The notes under the pieces are model-generated. The model searched no databases and was not told where the DNA came from. It worked only from the letters and a program-made list of their open reading frames with translations. From Candidatus Thorarchaeota archaeon (lineage in GTDB: Archaea > Asgardarchaeota > Thorarchaeia > Thorarchaeales > Thorarchaeaceae): a stretch of 34,318 bases of DNA. The stretch lies in contig SDNP01000030.1 of the NCBI GenBank assembly GCA_004524445.1, forward strand, positions 1 through 34,318, read 5' to 3'. A program made the translations under genes and the position numbers. Of the stretch, positions 115-19,561 are shown piece after piece; within the stretch, counting starts at the first letter, position 1; the number at the start of each line of letters is the position of its first letter.

Positions 115-885
115 ATGGAAGTGGAACTAGTCATAGAAACAAAGGATGTAATCGTATACTTCATTGCGGTTCTATATGCAGTATTGGTTCTGGCAACTGG
201 TGATGTCGCCCGAAGAAGGCTGAATATGAGCCCTGATTTCACAAGAAAGATAATTCACCTTTTTGCGGGTGCAGCAATTTGGACTGTGCCATACTACCCT
301 CATCCCTGGGTTGCCACACTCGTCGCTCTGACATTCGTCATCATGTTGGGAATGGCGAGCATTGATAGATTCAGCAATTTCTTTTCTGCAATGGCCAGGC
401 CGGAAGACCTTGACCATGGTAGTGTCAGAGGCCCTTTCTGGTATGCCGTTTCGATTACGGTTCTAACGGGAGTATTCACATTCACAGGCTATGACAGATT
501 CTACTTCATAGCAGCTGCAGCGATTCATATTATGATGTTCGGAGATGGAATGTCGGCTCCTATCGGAATGAGGTACGGGCTAAATTCAACACGAGAGATC
601 TTCGGTTCAAAGCGAAGTACTCATGGCTGTCTAGCCCTTTTCGTATTTGGATTTCTTGGGGCGCTACTGGCATTCTGGTGGTTTGGCATTGTGAATTATG
701 GTGTGTTTGTTAGTAATGGCAATATACTATGGCTTGAAATGATAGTGTTGGCACTAGTTGGATCAATTGCTGCTACACTTGTAGAACTAGTCAGTCCAAA
801 AGGAACAGATAATACCACACTTCCAATTGCTTCTACAGTAGTAATGCTGCTTGTAGGAATGGCAATGGGGCTGGTTGCTCTATAA
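115..885 (+). CDS. Dolichol/phytol (polyprenol) kinase family integral membrane protein (CTP-dependent)
   Basis: Multi-TM; RKIIH motif, GDGMSAPIGxxYG, GSKRSTHG and VELVSPKGTDNxxLP motifs typical of the Sec59/VTE5-like kinase family. Confidence 0.85.
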   Translation: MEVELVIETKDVIVYFIAVLYAVLVLATGDVARRRLNMSPDFTRKIIHLFAGAAIWTVPYYPHPWVATLVALTFVIMLGMASIDRFSNFFSAMARPEDLDHGSVRGPFWYAVSITVLTGVFTFTGYDRFYFIAAAAIHIMMFGDGMSAPIGMRYGLNSTREIFGSKRSTHGCLALFVFGFLGALLAFWWFGIVNYGVFVSNGNILWLEMIVLALVGSIAATLVELVSPKGTDNTTLPIASTVVMLLVGMAMGLVAL

Positions 886-13719: not shown

Positions 13720-16362
13720 TCATTTCTTGAGAGGACGTTCAATCATCTCAATCTGACTATCGATCTCTTCATTAAGGTCAGTTAGACCTCTCACATCGGC
13801 TATCCGCTGTACGGCCTTGAGGTTATGAATAACTGAATCTAACCATGAGTAAATATCGCCAGGGTATGCCCATAATTCAAATTCCTCGCGCATCTTGCTG
13901 GAAATTCCTGAAGGGTTCATGCCCTCCTTTCTTTTCTTTACAATCCATTTTCCAATCTCTATTTTTGGATGGTCACATTCTGGGAAATCCTTGCATTCAC
14001 AGGTGAAAAATGTCGAACCCCATTTCCCAAAGAGTTCAAAAACCCATTGAGGTAATCTACTAGCTCCACCCTGTTTCTGACCTACATCAGTCATGTCCAT
14101 AAATGCGCCAGAAAAGAGTCTGGTTGGCATATGAGTTCTGAAAGCTTGATTCACTTCGGCTTGAAGTTTTGAACTGAGATAGATGTTCTCTAATGGGTCT
14201 AGCTTAATTGCGATGTCAAGAACATCCATGTCATCCGTCAGTTTTGCCACTTCGTAACCCTCACTGGGACTTAAGAATGAAACAGACGTTGCTCTACCCA
14301 AAGGCGTCGGGTGAACCTCACCACTCTTAACACGAATCATATGATTTCTTACTAGATGTTTCATGGCCTCAGAGGGTGCAACAGACGCCGATAGCATTTG
14401 CAGGTAAATTCTAGCCACGGCCTTCAAATCAACGAGCCCAGTTGAACAAATCGTTGCAAGAATTTGTTCTGCGGATGCTTCCTTATTGGCAAAGGGCTCC
14501 ACATCCTCAATTTCGCCCTCAAGAATACGTGTTGCCACTTGATCCTCAGTGAGGTCTTGTCCAGAATGATATTTTCTTTCGGGTTCAATGAGTAGGTAGA
14601 CCTTTCCACGGTCATGCTTTCCAAGTCGACCAGCTCGTCCGAGCATCTGTTCGAACTCAGCAGTTGTAATCCAATGTGCGCCCATTGCCAGCGTTTCGAA
14701 AATGACTTGAGATGCCGGCAAATCAACCCCAGCGCCAAGTGCTGCAGTAGTTATGACACATGGATAGCGTTGCTTTCCGTATGAGTATTCGATACTCCTT
14801 CTATGAGAATATGAGAGACCTCCATGATAGACGGCACTTCTGACCCCATGCTCTCTCATCCAGTCACTTATTGAGTGTGCCCGTCTTCTTGAAAAGGTGA
14901 ATACTATCGATTGTCCTTTATTGCCACTGCTGCTTGTTTGCCTAAACTCATCTAGTACTAACCTCCTAATTATGGAACGTTTTGCTTCTTCATTTCGCGC
15001 GAAAACCACATGCCGCTCAAGCGTAACAGGGCGCCCAGTATAATTAACCAGTTCCAGATTCAAATCCTTGGCTAACAGGTCCGGGGAGCCAACAGTTGCT
15101 GATAGAGCAAGTATCTGAGCATTGGGTGCGTAGAATCTCAGCCGAGATAATATTCCGTCGAGCTCAGGACCTCTTTCTGAATCTGCTAGATTCTGTATCT
15201 CATCTACGACAATTGTACCTATTTCACCAAGTTTCCTTGTTTCCCCTGAACGCAGCAGCAAATCAAGGGCTTCATACGTCGCACAGATGATATCCGATTT
15301 CTCCACATCAGTGTCAACAATAGGTTTTCCTTCTTCGCCCACCTCCAGTCGGGACATTCCTACCCGAATACCTACTCTGAGACCAAGCTTTTTGTACCGC
15401 TTTCTGAAAACTTCGTATTTTTCGTTCGTTAAGGCAACCAAGGGTGACAGATATATCATCTTCTTTCCATCTAATGCCTTGGGCACCCCAGCGAACTCTC
15501 CCACCATTGTCTTTCCTGATGATGTTGAGGAGACTATGAGAAGGTCCTCTCCCTTCAGTAAGCCGGCTCGAACTACCTTCTCCTGGACTGGCAAAAGAGT
15601 ATCAAACCCCTCCTCTATCAGCATGTCCCGCATACGTTGAGGGATTTGTAGGTCTCCAATCTTCCTTCCGTCTACTACTTCGCCCCTTGACAGAGTATCG
15701 ACTTTGGTGATTTCGGGATCGCTGGTGGGGTCAAAATTCGGGTCAACCAAATCCAAGATTCTTGGCAATGATTTGACACGGAGAAGCTGCCTCTCCATGT
15801 GTCTAAGCATTGGTTTCGACATCTTGATGCCCATGGCCTTCAAGTCAGTTCGAAGTTCAGTCTTTGAACACGCTCCACAAAGAACTTGATGAGAAGAAAT
15901 CTTCACTGCATTCCTCTTTGACAGTACCGTCAGCCTGCGGTCCCGCATACAATTCGGGCATACAGTTACTACTCTTGGTTCTGTCGCACTGATTCGGTTC
16001 AATAACTCCTTTAGCGAGTCAATGAAGTCAGGGGATTGGCCTTTTGGCACTATTATGTATTTGGCTTTGCGGAGGACATCATGAAATTCACTAGGCTGAT
16101 AGTAGACAGGTTTGTTGTATTTCACAAACCATGAGCGACGAATTTCCAGCAGACCGTCATTTCGATAGCCATACTCAACCATCCCGCGTAGCAGCGCCCG
16201 CTGTCGATCCATGAGCACATCTTGGAAGACCTCTACACGGGTTCCTAATTCTTGCCTACTATCACGTAGAACGATTCCATATGGCTTTCTGAGCCTCTTT
16301 TGTATGTCTGCGTGAGCAACTTCCACTGGATTCACTATTCTTCGAGGCTGACCAAGTGCCAA
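13720..16362 (-). CDS. Archaea-specific superfamily II Ski2-like DExH helicase (COG1202 / ASH-Ski2 type)
   Basis: LLPVQ, TSSGKT, PLVALTNEK, DEIQ, SAT, YHGGL, QMLGRAGR; N-terminal CxxC...CxxC and C-terminal CECKDFPECDH Zn sites. Confidence 0.9.
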   Translation of the reverse strand: MALGQPRRIVNPVEVAHADIQKRLRKPYGIVLRDSRQELGTRVEVFQDVLMDRQRALLRGMVEYGYRNDGLLEIRRSWFVKYNKPVYYQPSEFHDVLRKAKYIIVPKGQSPDFIDSLKELLNRISATEPRVVTVCPNCMRDRRLTVLSKRNAVKISSHQVLCGACSKTELRTDLKAMGIKMSKPMLRHMERQLLRVKSLPRILDLVDPNFDPTSDPEITKVDTLSRGEVVDGRKIGDLQIPQRMRDMLIEEGFDTLLPVQEKVVRAGLLKGEDLLIVSSTSSGKTMVGEFAGVPKALDGKKMIYLSPLVALTNEKYEVFRKRYKKLGLRVGIRVGMSRLEVGEEGKPIVDTDVEKSDIICATYEALDLLLRSGETRKLGEIGTIVVDEIQNLADSERGPELDGILSRLRFYAPNAQILALSATVGSPDLLAKDLNLELVNYTGRPVTLERHVVFARNEEAKRSIIRRLVLDEFRQTSSSGNKGQSIVFTFSRRRAHSISDWMREHGVRSAVYHGGLSYSHRRSIEYSYGKQRYPCVITTAALGAGVDLPASQVIFETLAMGAHWITTAEFEQMLGRAGRLGKHDRGKVYLLIEPERKYHSGQDLTEDQVATRILEGEIEDVEPFANKEASAEQILATICSTGLVDLKAVARIYLQMLSASVAPSEAMKHLVRNHMIRVKSGEVHPTPLGRATSVSFLSPSEGYEVAKLTDDMDVLDIAIKLDPLENIYLSSKLQAEVNQAFRTHMPTRLFSGAFMDMTDVGQKQGGASRLPQWVFELFGKWGSTFFTCECKDFPECDHPKIEIGKWIVKKRKEGMNPSGISSKMREEFELWAYPGDIYSWLDSVIHNLKAVQRIADVRGLTDLNEEIDSQIEMIERPLKK

Positions 16363-16378
16363 TTACTCTTTGGGTTCA

Positions 16379-17149
16379 TCAGAGCTCAAAAATAAATTTA
16401 TCAAGATTTTTCTCAATAACACGAAGAACCGAATCATATTCCTCTCTGATTGCTTCGGTCCCCGTTCCTCCCATCCCAGCCTTTTCCACAATCATCCAAT
16501 CAGACATAACATCAATATCTGCATAGTTCGCAAATTTGGAGAAGGCAATAGCCATGACATCAAGACGCTCTATGCTACTGTACTTCATGCGATTGTATCC
16601 CTCCACTAAAGGTTGATAGAGCGGACGGTTTGTGCCGCCTAGAATGAATCTTGCTCTCTGGACTCCTGAAACAAGCGAAACGCTGAGCCGTTTCATCATC
16701 TCTTTATAGTGCGCCACGGTTGGGGGACGACCCTCGCCCTTGATGCTTGCGATAGTATCCCCAGTCAGAATGTTTCCCTTTTCTACAACAAGATCATTTA
16801 TGAGAGCAACGATCTCCTCACGTTTCTTGACCCCCATGGGATCAATAACTTCTGGATTGATTATGTCTACAAGTGGAATTGGCTCATCATATCGAAGGGC
16901 AGTTGGGTCAAACATTATTGCAAATAGGTGCTTTCCAATATCTACCTGAATACTATTCTTGATAGCTCTCCCTTTGAAATAGCCTGGCCCAATTAAGACA
17001 GAAAGGACTTGTTCTTCTCTTATAATTGACCATAGTTGAGATGATGCAATCAAGGCACGACCGTGAATATCTGCTCCCTTGAAGACCTCTGTTTCGAAGT
17101 TATAGGCTTCAATATCTACAAGCCACAAGAGAGGACCTGAATCTTTCAT
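16379..17149 (-). CDS. Hypothetical protein (256 aa), middle gene of the helicase operon
   Basis: Long ORF; ATGA overlap with the upstream gene; 16 nt gap to the helicase. Confidence 0.8.
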   Translation of the reverse strand: MKDSGPLLWLVDIEAYNFETEVFKGADIHGRALIASSQLWSIIREEQVLSVLIGPGYFKGRAIKNSIQVDIGKHLFAIMFDPTALRYDEPIPLVDIINPEVIDPMGVKKREEIVALINDLVVEKGNILTGDTIASIKGEGRPPTVAHYKEMMKRLSVSLVSGVQRARFILGGTNRPLYQPLVEGYNRMKYSSIERLDVMAIAFSKFANYADIDVMSDWMIVEKAGMGGTGTEAIREEYDSVLRVIEKNLDKFIFEL

Positions 17150-18333
17150 TGTGATGTATCACCATAGAAGTTTCTGCGCACATATTTGATGACCAATTTT
17201 GCCGCAGCTTGCTCTTGTTCATCGGGAGGAACGCCATTGAGTGCAATCTCTATTTCTTCATCAATATCCTCCAGAGAAGAGCTGGGCAATTTGAGCCGCT
17301 CTTGCATTTCGACGATGGCCTTTTCAACAGCGTCATCGATTGGCGTTCCTTGATGAATTAGTACACGAATAACTCGTGGGACTTTATTCTTCAGGTATAA
17401 TTCCCTATCCTCTCCTTTTCGTCTCTTCGCCAAGCGTACATCTCTTTCTAGAAAATCAAACGGAGATGTCATGTCCGGCTCGGTCTTATTTCCTCGTAGA
17501 GAAGACATTCCTCGAGATACATATTTTGATCTATCACCGCGAAATTGCAGTGGTCGCGGAGCAAGATGCAGTATGAAATGAGAAGCTGTGGAAACAGCTA
17601 TGTCCTCAAGTCGCGAGTCGAAATCATCTACAATCTTCTCAATTTGGTTGATCATTGCTTCCACAATTATAGAATCGGATGCAGTTGAGAGAATAACGCC
17701 CAATCTGCGGTATAATGCTTGACTTCTTCGTCTTAGAGAGATGATTTTTCCTCGCAGTGTTGTTGGCATCCAATTTGTAATAGCCTGTCCGAACACCATT
17801 ACGAGGTCTTCACTGTTTGCCTTAGGATGTTCATCAAACCAAGTTTGTGCGATTGGCATAATGAACCCCTCTGAGATTCGGGTTCTGGTATTGAAAATTG
17901 AAATTGCTTTCTCTACTGGGGGATTGTCTTCCTCAAGAACGTTTTCAAGGTTCGATAGGTTTCTTACTTTACTTTCTAACTTGCTCGTGAACCCGCCATA
18001 TAGATACTCCAACCATCTACCCTCTTGAATGGCAAATTCTTGGACATTTCCCGGCAGATTAGGAACGGATTCGCCAACATGATTCCGCCGGTTGATTTCG
18101 TTTGTAAGAAGCTCAACTGCTTGTTTCGCCCCCATTATGCCGTCCATTTCAATTAGGTAAGCTACCAAAGCCATCTGTACTGGGCATTTGGTTTCCTCAA
18201 CAATAGCGTTGGCCAAGTCAACTCTGAGTCTTTCTATTCTGTTGCTCAAATCGGAGTGCTTCTCAGCAAACTCTTCTACCAATTGTTTTCGAGTAACTAA
18301 TGCTAACTCTTGCACGTCTGCATCCCTTGACAT
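17146..18333 (-). CDS. Hypothetical mostly alpha-helical protein (395 aa)
   Basis: Long ORF with AGGGGA upstream of ATG; no family recognised. Confidence 0.82.
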   Translation of the reverse strand: MSRDADVQELALVTRKQLVEEFAEKHSDLSNRIERLRVDLANAIVEETKCPVQMALVAYLIEMDGIMGAKQAVELLTNEINRRNHVGESVPNLPGNVQEFAIQEGRWLEYLYGGFTSKLESKVRNLSNLENVLEEDNPPVEKAISIFNTRTRISEGFIMPIAQTWFDEHPKANSEDLVMVFGQAITNWMPTTLRGKIISLRRRSQALYRRLGVILSTASDSIIVEAMINQIEKIVDDFDSRLEDIAVSTASHFILHLAPRPLQFRGDRSKYVSRGMSSLRGNKTEPDMTSPFDFLERDVRLAKRRKGEDRELYLKNKVPRVIRVLIHQGTPIDDAVEKAIVEMQERLKLPSSSLEDIDEEIEIALNGVPPDEQEQAAAKLVIKYVRRNFYGDTSQ

Positions 18334-18489: not shown

Positions 18490-18693
18490 TCAAGCACCTG
18501 TATAGAGTAGTAAGAAATGGATTCCAAAGCCAATGAATAAAGAACCAACTATCAGGGCCAAAGCGGCCTTGATTTTTGAGAAGTGTCTAGCATGCTCCAC
18601 ATGAACACCCAACCACCCAAATGACAATAGACCGAATGCAATGAATACAATTGAAAGATATATGAAACTCGATTCGAATGTGATTTGGAGCAT
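18490..18693 (-). CDS. OST5/TMEM258-like oligosaccharyltransferase small subunit (67 aa, 2 TM)
   Basis: SLFIGFGIHFLLLYTG matches recalled TMEM258 SLFMGFGVLFLLLWVG; the TM1 LxxVxxAxGxxxxxW pattern also aligns; AGAGGA upstream of ATG. Confidence 0.75.
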   Translation of the reverse strand: MLQITFESSFIYLSIVFIAFGLLSFGWLGVHVEHARHFSKIKAALALIVGSLFIGFGIHFLLLYTGA

Positions 18694-18790
18694 AGGTATT
18701 CCTCTTTGATAGTCTAGCTTGCCCAATACTATTGTGATTTAAACATCACGGTCATCCAGTATTTGTCCTAACCATCCTCGTCGTATAGGG

Positions 18791-19561
18791 CTACACATAG
18801 AATTCATAGTCGAATGTGTATTCCTCGTCATCTAGAGTAATAGTCCTGTGCAGTTTCCCTTTTTTCTTGGCGAGTTTGCGTTTCTCAGTGAAAGTGAGCC
18901 CCTCATCTTGAGGGATATCAATATCTTCAATATGGAATTCATTTCTTATGAATACGGACTTTGGTTCCGATTCTAGTTTATCAATAACCTCAGGTGCGAC
19001 CTCATTGAAGATGAATTTCATCATTTCATCTGAACTCTCAAGTGTCCCTGTTGCGTAGTTAGGGGCTTTCTCATCCTCTTTTTCCCCACCCTTTGGACCT
19101 CTTGGGAATGAAGTCTTGGTTTTGATTTTCCAAGGCTTGGCATTCTTGGCTGGATTAATTGAGAGTTGGTAGAATGTTGTAGGATTATCTAGTTCAAAGA
19201 GCTCTTTTACATGCTCAAATGGGGCAACCTCGCTAATCTTTGCCTTATACGTCGTGGCACCTTTTCCTTTGGACTCTTTCCAAATCAAGGGCATCTGAAC
19301 AGATTTGAACTCCTCCCTTCTATCGTCATAACTAACGATTTGACCTTTCACCTTCTGTTTGACATCCGGAACGCCTTCAAGATAGGCACGATGGAAGATA
19401 GTTTCCAAATCAAGGTCTGCACGGAAGTAGATCTTAGATCCCCTGACTGTGAGTTTTATTCTTGGACCAGGGTATCTTCCCTTGCCGTATTTCACAAGTT
19501 TGGCATGAGCGTGTTCTCCAGCCTTTCCTTCTATCATTGTCTTGAGCCAACTCATTCTCAT
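18791..19561 (-). CDS. Hypothetical protein of uncharacterised archaeal type (256 aa)
   Basis: Long ORF; HAKLVKYGKGRY N-terminal and RKLAKKKGKLHRTI C-terminal motifs. Confidence 0.8.
   Translation of the reverse strand: MRMSWLKTMIEGKAGEHAHAKLVKYGKGRYPGPRIKLTVRGSKIYFRADLDLETIFHRAYLEGVPDVKQKVKGQIVSYDDRREEFKSVQMPLIWKESKGKGATTYKAKISEVAPFEHVKELFELDNPTTFYQLSINPAKNAKPWKIKTKTSFPRGPKGGEKEDEKAPNYATGTLESSDEMMKFIFNEVAPEVIDKLESEPKSVFIRNEFHIEDIDIPQDEGLTFTEKRKLAKKKGKLHRTITLDDEEYTFDYEFYV

Follow-up and report, generated by a model that had tools for sequence, protein, structure and literature searches.

The window, by which we mean the whole 34,318-nucleotide stretch of DNA that was analyzed, is contig C20 of a 2.79-Mb genome that is held in 64 contigs and is 90% complete. 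The database relatives of its proteins bear Thorarchaeota names. A preliminary description of this DNA had reported a 67-aa protein with two transmembrane segments at positions 18490 to 18693 and had likened it to the OST5/TMEM258 subunit of the eukaryotic oligosaccharyltransferase (OST). The open reading frame proved to be exact, hydropathy analysis gave two helices, and both stretches of protein sequence that the description had quoted are present in the translation. The gene, its parts, and its surroundings are as follows (window numbering).

18490..18693, minus strand: coding sequence of the Ost5/TMEM258 homolog (P0001, 67 aa), stop codon included, from the open reading frame and its translation
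18693-18691 and 18492-18490, minus strand: start codon (ATG) and stop codon (TGA), respectively, of the Ost5-like gene
18604..18672, minus strand: transmembrane helix 1, about residues 8 to 30, from hydropathy; its end lies at the nearly invariant Trp27
18568..18603, minus strand: short basic loop, residues 31 to 42, HVEHARHFSKIK, presumably cytoplasmic
18496..18567, minus strand: transmembrane helix 2, about residues 43 to 66, from hydropathy, with the motif SLF-x-GFG-x-x-F-LLL, common to TMEM258
18737..18743, minus strand: TTTAAAT, TATA-box-like, 44 to 50 nt upstream of the ATG, read from the sequence as a candidate promoter of the gene's own
18701..18704, minus strand: GAGG, Shine-Dalgarno-like, 8 to 11 nt upstream of the ATG, read from the sequence
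18791..19561, minus strand: 256-aa soluble protein of no known family, 97 nt upstream of the Ost5-like gene; context, not an OST subunit
17146-18333, minus strand: 395-aa protein of no known family, 156 nt downstream of the Ost5-like gene
13720-18333, minus strand: the 395-aa protein, then a 256-aa protein of no known family, then an 880-aa DEAD/Helicase_C/DUF5814 helicase
115-885, plus strand: P0148, a 256-aa multipass membrane protein

The two hydrophobic helices of the Ost5-like protein were placed by hydropathy at about residues 8 to 33 and 40 to 66, within hydrophobic windows that span residues 1 to 33 (strongest from about residue 8) and 38 to 67, and a 12-residue polar loop lies between them. 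On paper, a longer frame of 78 aa can be started from a TTG at 18726. The ATG is nevertheless the likely start, because relatives of the protein begin with a conserved MLQ(I/V), because the TTG lies just 11 nt past the TTTAAAT box, and because GAGG is found 8 to 11 nt before the ATG. Both the assignment of TTTAAAT as a promoter and that of GAGG as a ribosome site are putative. The loop carries R36, K40, K42, and three histidines against a single glutamate, and the termini are neutral or acidic. By the positive-inside rule, the protein probably has its termini outside the cell and its basic loop in the cytoplasm. In TMEM258, both termini are lumenal and the loop is cytoplasmic.

Close relatives of the protein are 53 to 88 aa long and 54 to 76% identical to it. 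Residues W27, H31 to S39, and G55 to F60 are invariant in the alignment of these relatives (alignment A1). In a wider set of 22 Asgard relatives, W27, E33, and S39 are nearly invariant and G55, F56, and G57 vary little or not at all. A HMMER pass over 1.8 billion representative sequences returned 17 relatives, all of 60 to 88 aa. The order Trp, (H)VE, Ser, GFG is kept in 16 of them; the exception has a C-terminal half that reads as a shifted frame. When the gene was compared with six orthologs from the same family, 116 of the 190 codons specifying the same residue differed in DNA, which indicates that the protein is under purifying selection. Within the loop, the DNA had changed in 26 of 40 codons whose residue is conserved. 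Since the frame is short (204 nt) and sits in a 457-nt gap between larger genes, it could be regarded as a chance opening between two real genes. We consider the probability of this to be close to nil, and the conservation of the sequence refutes it: hundreds of genomes preserve the protein sequence although many of its codons have changed synonymously, the MLQ start is kept, and the TATA-like and Shine-Dalgarno-like elements are correctly placed. The open reading frame is a real, conserved, single-copy gene.

A search with the Pfam Ost5 profile (PF05251) had been proposed as a check of the preliminary description, and it was positive. The 67-aa protein matched with 28.8 bits (E value of 1.5e-6; profile positions 10 to 70 of 73) against a curated gathering cutoff of 27.4 bits, an excess of only 1.4 bits; the next Pfam-A family had an E value of 0.89. 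A six-frame search of the genome with PF05251 gave a single match, of 27.6 bits. In the reverse search, which was carried out with phmmer over 177,635 distinct PDB sequences, human TMEM258 was the only significant match (E value of 1.1e-5; next, 5.8). The alignment pairs residues 9 to 66 of the archaeal protein with residues 17 to 76 of the 79 in TMEM258 (6S7O chain C), and the same TMEM258 sequence is also present in PDB entries 6S7T, 8B6L, 8PN9, 9N9J, and 9YGY. The strings of human TMEM258 that the preliminary description had given for comparison agree with the HMMER printout for 6s7o_C. A profile built from nine close relatives again retrieved TMEM258 from the PDB (E value of 9.7e-5; next, 0.31). 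W27, G55, F56, and G57 of the Ost5-like protein align with identical residues of TMEM258.

Composition controls were run because hydrophobic microproteins can mislead. The BLOSUM62 local score of the protein against TMEM258 residues 17 to 76 was 96. In 3,000 shuffles of the whole sequence, the mean score against TMEM258 was 28.7 and the maximum was 55; in 3,000 shuffles within segments, which leave each helix and the loop where they are, scores averaged 31.4 and peaked at 65. The real score was reached by none of the 6,000 shuffles (z = 10 to 13). The best score against TMEM258 among 105 other small two-helix open frames of the genome was 44.

These results bear on the notion that the protein is an unrelated two-helix microprotein that resembles TMEM258 through convergence or composition. 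Weak profile matches are common for short hydrophobic proteins, the Pfam Ost5 score is marginal, and 9 of 14 control genomes contain subthreshold PF05251 matches at an E value of ≤1. We nevertheless hold convergence or composition to be very improbable, and it is largely refuted by the sequence comparisons: the score stands 10 to 13 standard deviations above shuffles that preserve composition and segments and is over twice that of any other small two-helix frame of the genome, TMEM258 is the only significant PDB match, the Asgard and human sequences both conserve the Trp that closes helix 1 and the GFG of helix 2, and PF05251 scores in other Asgard lineages rise to 45.6 bits, bridging to the eukaryotic family. 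On this evidence, the 67-aa protein is a true relative of Ost5/TMEM258. Of 400 Asgard genomes, 243 had a match to PF05251 at an E value of ≤0.01, but most of these fell below the Pfam cutoff, which only 70 of the 400 exceeded; in the window's own family, 73 of 85 genomes had a match. Above the cutoff, there was none in the 14 control genomes.

Eukaryotic Ost5/TMEM258 is a noncatalytic hairpin that packs on the transmembrane helix of Ost1/RPN1; the two make up subcomplex I, next to STT3. The archaeal protein resembles human TMEM258 in size (67 versus 79 aa), in having two transmembrane helices, in being colinear with it, in the Trp that ends helix 1, and in the SLF-x-GFG-x-x-F-LLL motif of helix 2. 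It differs from TMEM258 in its shorter N terminus and in its loop, which is two residues shorter, basic, rich in His, and invariant among close relatives. It also would reside in the cell membrane, whereas TMEM258 resides in the endoplasmic reticulum (ER), and its association with OST is proposed by analogy. Yeast Ost5, the zeta subunit (chains in 6EZN and 6C26), is likewise a two-helix hairpin of this Pfam family; it is noncatalytic, and its partner in subcomplex I is Ost1. The PDB sequence searches (phmmer and the nine-relative profile) did not retrieve yeast Ost5, and the archaeal protein more closely resembles the animal form, TMEM258.

We looked for the remaining parts of the enzyme in the same genome. 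STT3/AglB is present in one copy of 925 aa on contig C30. Two further components were found.

L009:6338-6937 (G000:C30:54337-54936), plus strand: Ost3/6-like protein, 199 aa, with a match of 35 bits to the membrane half of OST3/OST6
G000:C34:42098-45049 (L044:1501-4452), minus strand: Ost1/ribophorin-I homolog P0027, 984 aa

Upstream of STT3, at a distance of 3.5 kb and beyond folate and glycine-cleavage genes, is the Ost3/6-like gene; no thioredoxin part of OST3/OST6 was detected in its 199-aa product. The STT3, Ost1-like, and Ost5-like genes are on three separate contigs.

The Ost1 homolog was harder to recognize by profile, as a search of the genome with Pfam Ribophorin_I (PF04597) gave no match, P0027 included. 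In a genome of the same genus, a 984-aa open reading frame matched PF04597 weakly in a six-frame search (27 bits versus a 25-bit cutoff), although hmmscan of that protein lists no PF04597. P0027 is 91% identical to the 984-aa ortholog of the same-genus genome, and several P0027 orthologs carry a precomputed PF04597 match. Since the homolog was recovered via the same-genus ortholog and then by its fold, the miss in its own genome reflects a failure of sensitivity rather than absence. The last 150 residues of P0027 match PDB entry 8WHN (E value of 3.9e-6 alone and 4.4e-9 as a profile), the cytosolic domain with which the OST1 of the Loki-type strain MK-D1 binds the ribosome (J Biol Chem 2024, PMC11417166). 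The AF2 model of P0027 shows an all-beta region at residues 441 to 791 (pLDDT mostly 82 to 94), a transmembrane helix at 793 to 817, and four cytosolic helices at 845 to 980. The top eight Foldseek matches of this model were human RPN1 and yeast Ost1 (E values of 1.4e-27 to 4.2e-17; TM scores by target of 0.48 to 0.63), and the next match had an E value of 1e-10. The predicted fold, together with the tail of ribosome-binding type and the PF04597 matches in orthologs, establishes P0027 as Ost1-like.

P0027 consists, in order, of a signal/anchor, an FKBP domain (residues 151 to 232), an Ig-like domain (342 to 411), the Ost1 lumenal domains, one transmembrane helix, and the four-helix tail; the FKBP domain is extracytoplasmic and is fused ahead of the Ost1 part. 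The presence of this domain explains the public name of P0027, which is FKBP isomerase. Human FKBP11 is a separate membrane FKBP found at the OST-A translocon (Nature 2025, PMC12804085), and it occurs together with TMEM258 in PDB entries 9N9J and 9YGY. FKBP11 and the FKBP-Ost1 fusion may be functional parallels, which does not imply homology of the arrangement.

In this genome (90% complete), Ost4 (PF10215) gave only a subthreshold match of 12 bits, and searches for DAD/Ost2, OST48 (Wbp1), and ribophorin II (Swp1) gave nothing above the cutoffs. With no Ost4 above the cutoff and no Ost2, Wbp1, or Swp1 detected, the complex, if formed, would be smaller than the eukaryotic one. The set of subunits without a match above the cutoffs (Ost4, Ost2/DAD1, OST48, and ribophorin II) agrees with the reported restriction of subcomplex III to Heimdallarchaeia (Eme et al. 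2023, PMC10307638). A prediction of the complex between residues 640 to 984 of the Ost1-like protein (29-row alignment) and the Ost5-like protein (22-row alignment), run without controls, scored 0.01 against a mark of 0.32, a value that speaks neither for nor against binding.

These analyses make it likely that the open reading frame encodes the Thorarchaeota Ost5/TMEM258, a two-helix membrane hairpin that would be noncatalytic and would serve as a scaffold stabilizing the Ost1-STT3 assembly. By analogy with the eukaryotic enzyme, the hairpin would be embedded in the cell membrane next to the sole transmembrane helix of the Ost1 homolog, the pair constituting "subcomplex I," and would help hold the Ost1 homolog against the catalytic STT3/AglB. 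The tail of the Ost1 homolog is of the ribosome-binding type, and the Ost1-STT3 assembly therefore is probably near the Sec translocon. The outcome would be a stabilized multisubunit N-glycosylation enzyme at the translocon in which the Ost5-like protein has no catalytic role. We infer the binding to Ost1 and STT3, as well as the stabilizing role, from the eukaryotic complex. The main loose end is the strict conservation of the basic loop, which a purely intramembrane scaffold role does not explain.

Gene order around the Ost5-like gene is unchanged in six loci from the window's family, in all of which the 395-aa gene adjoins it. We surveyed the neighborhood in 30 related Asgard loci with flanks of 1.5 kb. 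No glycosylation genes were found beside the Ost5-like gene, either here or in the 30 loci; the neighbors included rpoB, a weakly Yip1-like membrane protein, TFE-alpha, ThiF-type enzymes, and an RsmB-type methyltransferase. The sole recurrent neighbor was the 256-aa protein encoded upstream of the Ost5-like gene in the window, which is adjacent in 17 of the 30 loci, drawn from two distant Asgard families. It is on the same strand as the Ost5-like gene in the window's family and head-to-head with it in an AT-rich family, f22. Its relatives (alignment A2) include the following.

L022:620-1378: relative of the 256-aa neighbor
L012:1847-2626: relative of the 256-aa neighbor; in family f22, of which this locus is an example, the gene of this type (260 aa) is directly upstream of the TFE-alpha gene

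In family f22, the opposite flank of the Ost5-like gene encodes a membrane protein of about 150 aa (L012:905-1378, minus strand), and the same is seen in 11 other f22 loci. This protein gives a Yip1-domain match of 21.6 bits, below the cutoff of 28.6, and the end of rpoB lies beyond it.

The 256-aa neighbor itself had no sequence match in Pfam, NCBIfam, or the PDB. Its AF2 model is confident, with a pLDDT of 89.4 and a pTM of 0.85. Foldseek returned nothing for this model at an E value of ≤0.001, the top rows being human RPP40 (E value of ≥0.013; TM score of 0.15), and VIA-align gave a best Z score of 3.3 to 3.6, with no clear structural match in the PDB and no CENP-L/N chain among the matches listed. 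The Atlas search with this protein yielded nothing usable.

The recurrence of this gene, together with the loop, raises the alternative that the protein is a true Ost5 homolog that works mainly with a partner outside OST, such as a cytoplasmic protein at the basic loop (possibly the 256-aa neighbor) or another component of the translocon. Loop residues 31 to 39 are invariant in close relatives despite strong DNA divergence and are unlike the eukaryotic loop, the 256-aa gene recurs beside the Ost5-like gene in both families even though its orientation differs, and the neighborhood is devoid of glycosylation genes. This conserved adjacency, however, may reflect inherited synteny, the position of the 260-aa gene in f22 points to transcription rather than to the membrane, and the presumed partners from the eukaryotic complex are encoded in the same genome. 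We regard a mainly non-OST partnership as unlikely. A narrower form of the idea is that the invariant loop of Thorarchaeota-type Ost5, HVEHARHFS, is a docking site for a cytoplasmic factor, for which the 256-aa neighbor would be the obvious candidate; this we consider a long shot. If it were true, the loop would couple glycosylation and the translocon in archaea to a novel cytoplasmic component that eukaryotes lack or have replaced.

The preliminary description also had placed a polyprenol kinase at 115 to 885, possibly belonging to the same pathway. P0148 has no Pfam match and no sequence match in the PDB. Its Atlas look-alikes, at feature values of 0.94 to 0.97 and a structural TM score of 0.81, are named cytidylyltransferase, diacylglycerol/polyprenol kinase, and phytol kinase family. 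The kinase label therefore is backed by look-alikes from a language model and predicted structures and not by Pfam or PDB sequence matches; P0148 is possibly a CTP-dependent polyprenol (dolichol) kinase, which we treat as a lead only. The position of P0148, 17.6 kb from the Ost5-like gene and on the opposite strand, offers no support for the suggested pathway link.

Eme et al. (2023, Nature 618:992; PMC10307638) reported homologs of Ost5/TMEM258 from every Asgard phylum, described them as present "in most Asgard archaeal classes," and placed OST5 in subcomplex I, so the caveat raised at the outset that the gene may not be new was justified. An eLife paper of 2022 also names Ost5 among the subunits detected in some Asgard archaea; Ost5 is absent from the list in the paper on the MK-D1 translocon (J Biol Chem 2024, PMC11417166), which has OST1, OST3/6, and STT3. 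Compared with the Asgard OST5 homologs of Eme et al., the protein described here is of the same family and from the same kind of organism. It is one more member, and our count of 243 in 400 genomes agrees with their report. The gene had further been called easily missed: public records do name its product a hypothetical protein, but the gene is already called there and carries a precomputed PF05251 match. The Ost5-like gene was identified correctly, but such genes were known before, and it is no new kind of component. What the present analysis adds is the statistical controls, the invariant loop of the Thorarchaeota type, the inventory of OST genes in the genome, and the recurrent 256-aa neighbor.

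Its practical value lies in supplying the right names for a "hypothetical" gene and for an Ost1 homolog annotated as an "FKBP isomerase." It also provides a defined four-gene set for reconstitution. The published picture is confirmed in one more Thorarchaeota genome, which encodes STT3, Ost1, Ost3/6, and Ost5 and in which Ost2, Wbp1, and Swp1 were undetected. The occurrence of accessory OST subunits in Asgard archaea is relevant to the origin of the eukaryotic ER glycosylation and translocon machinery.
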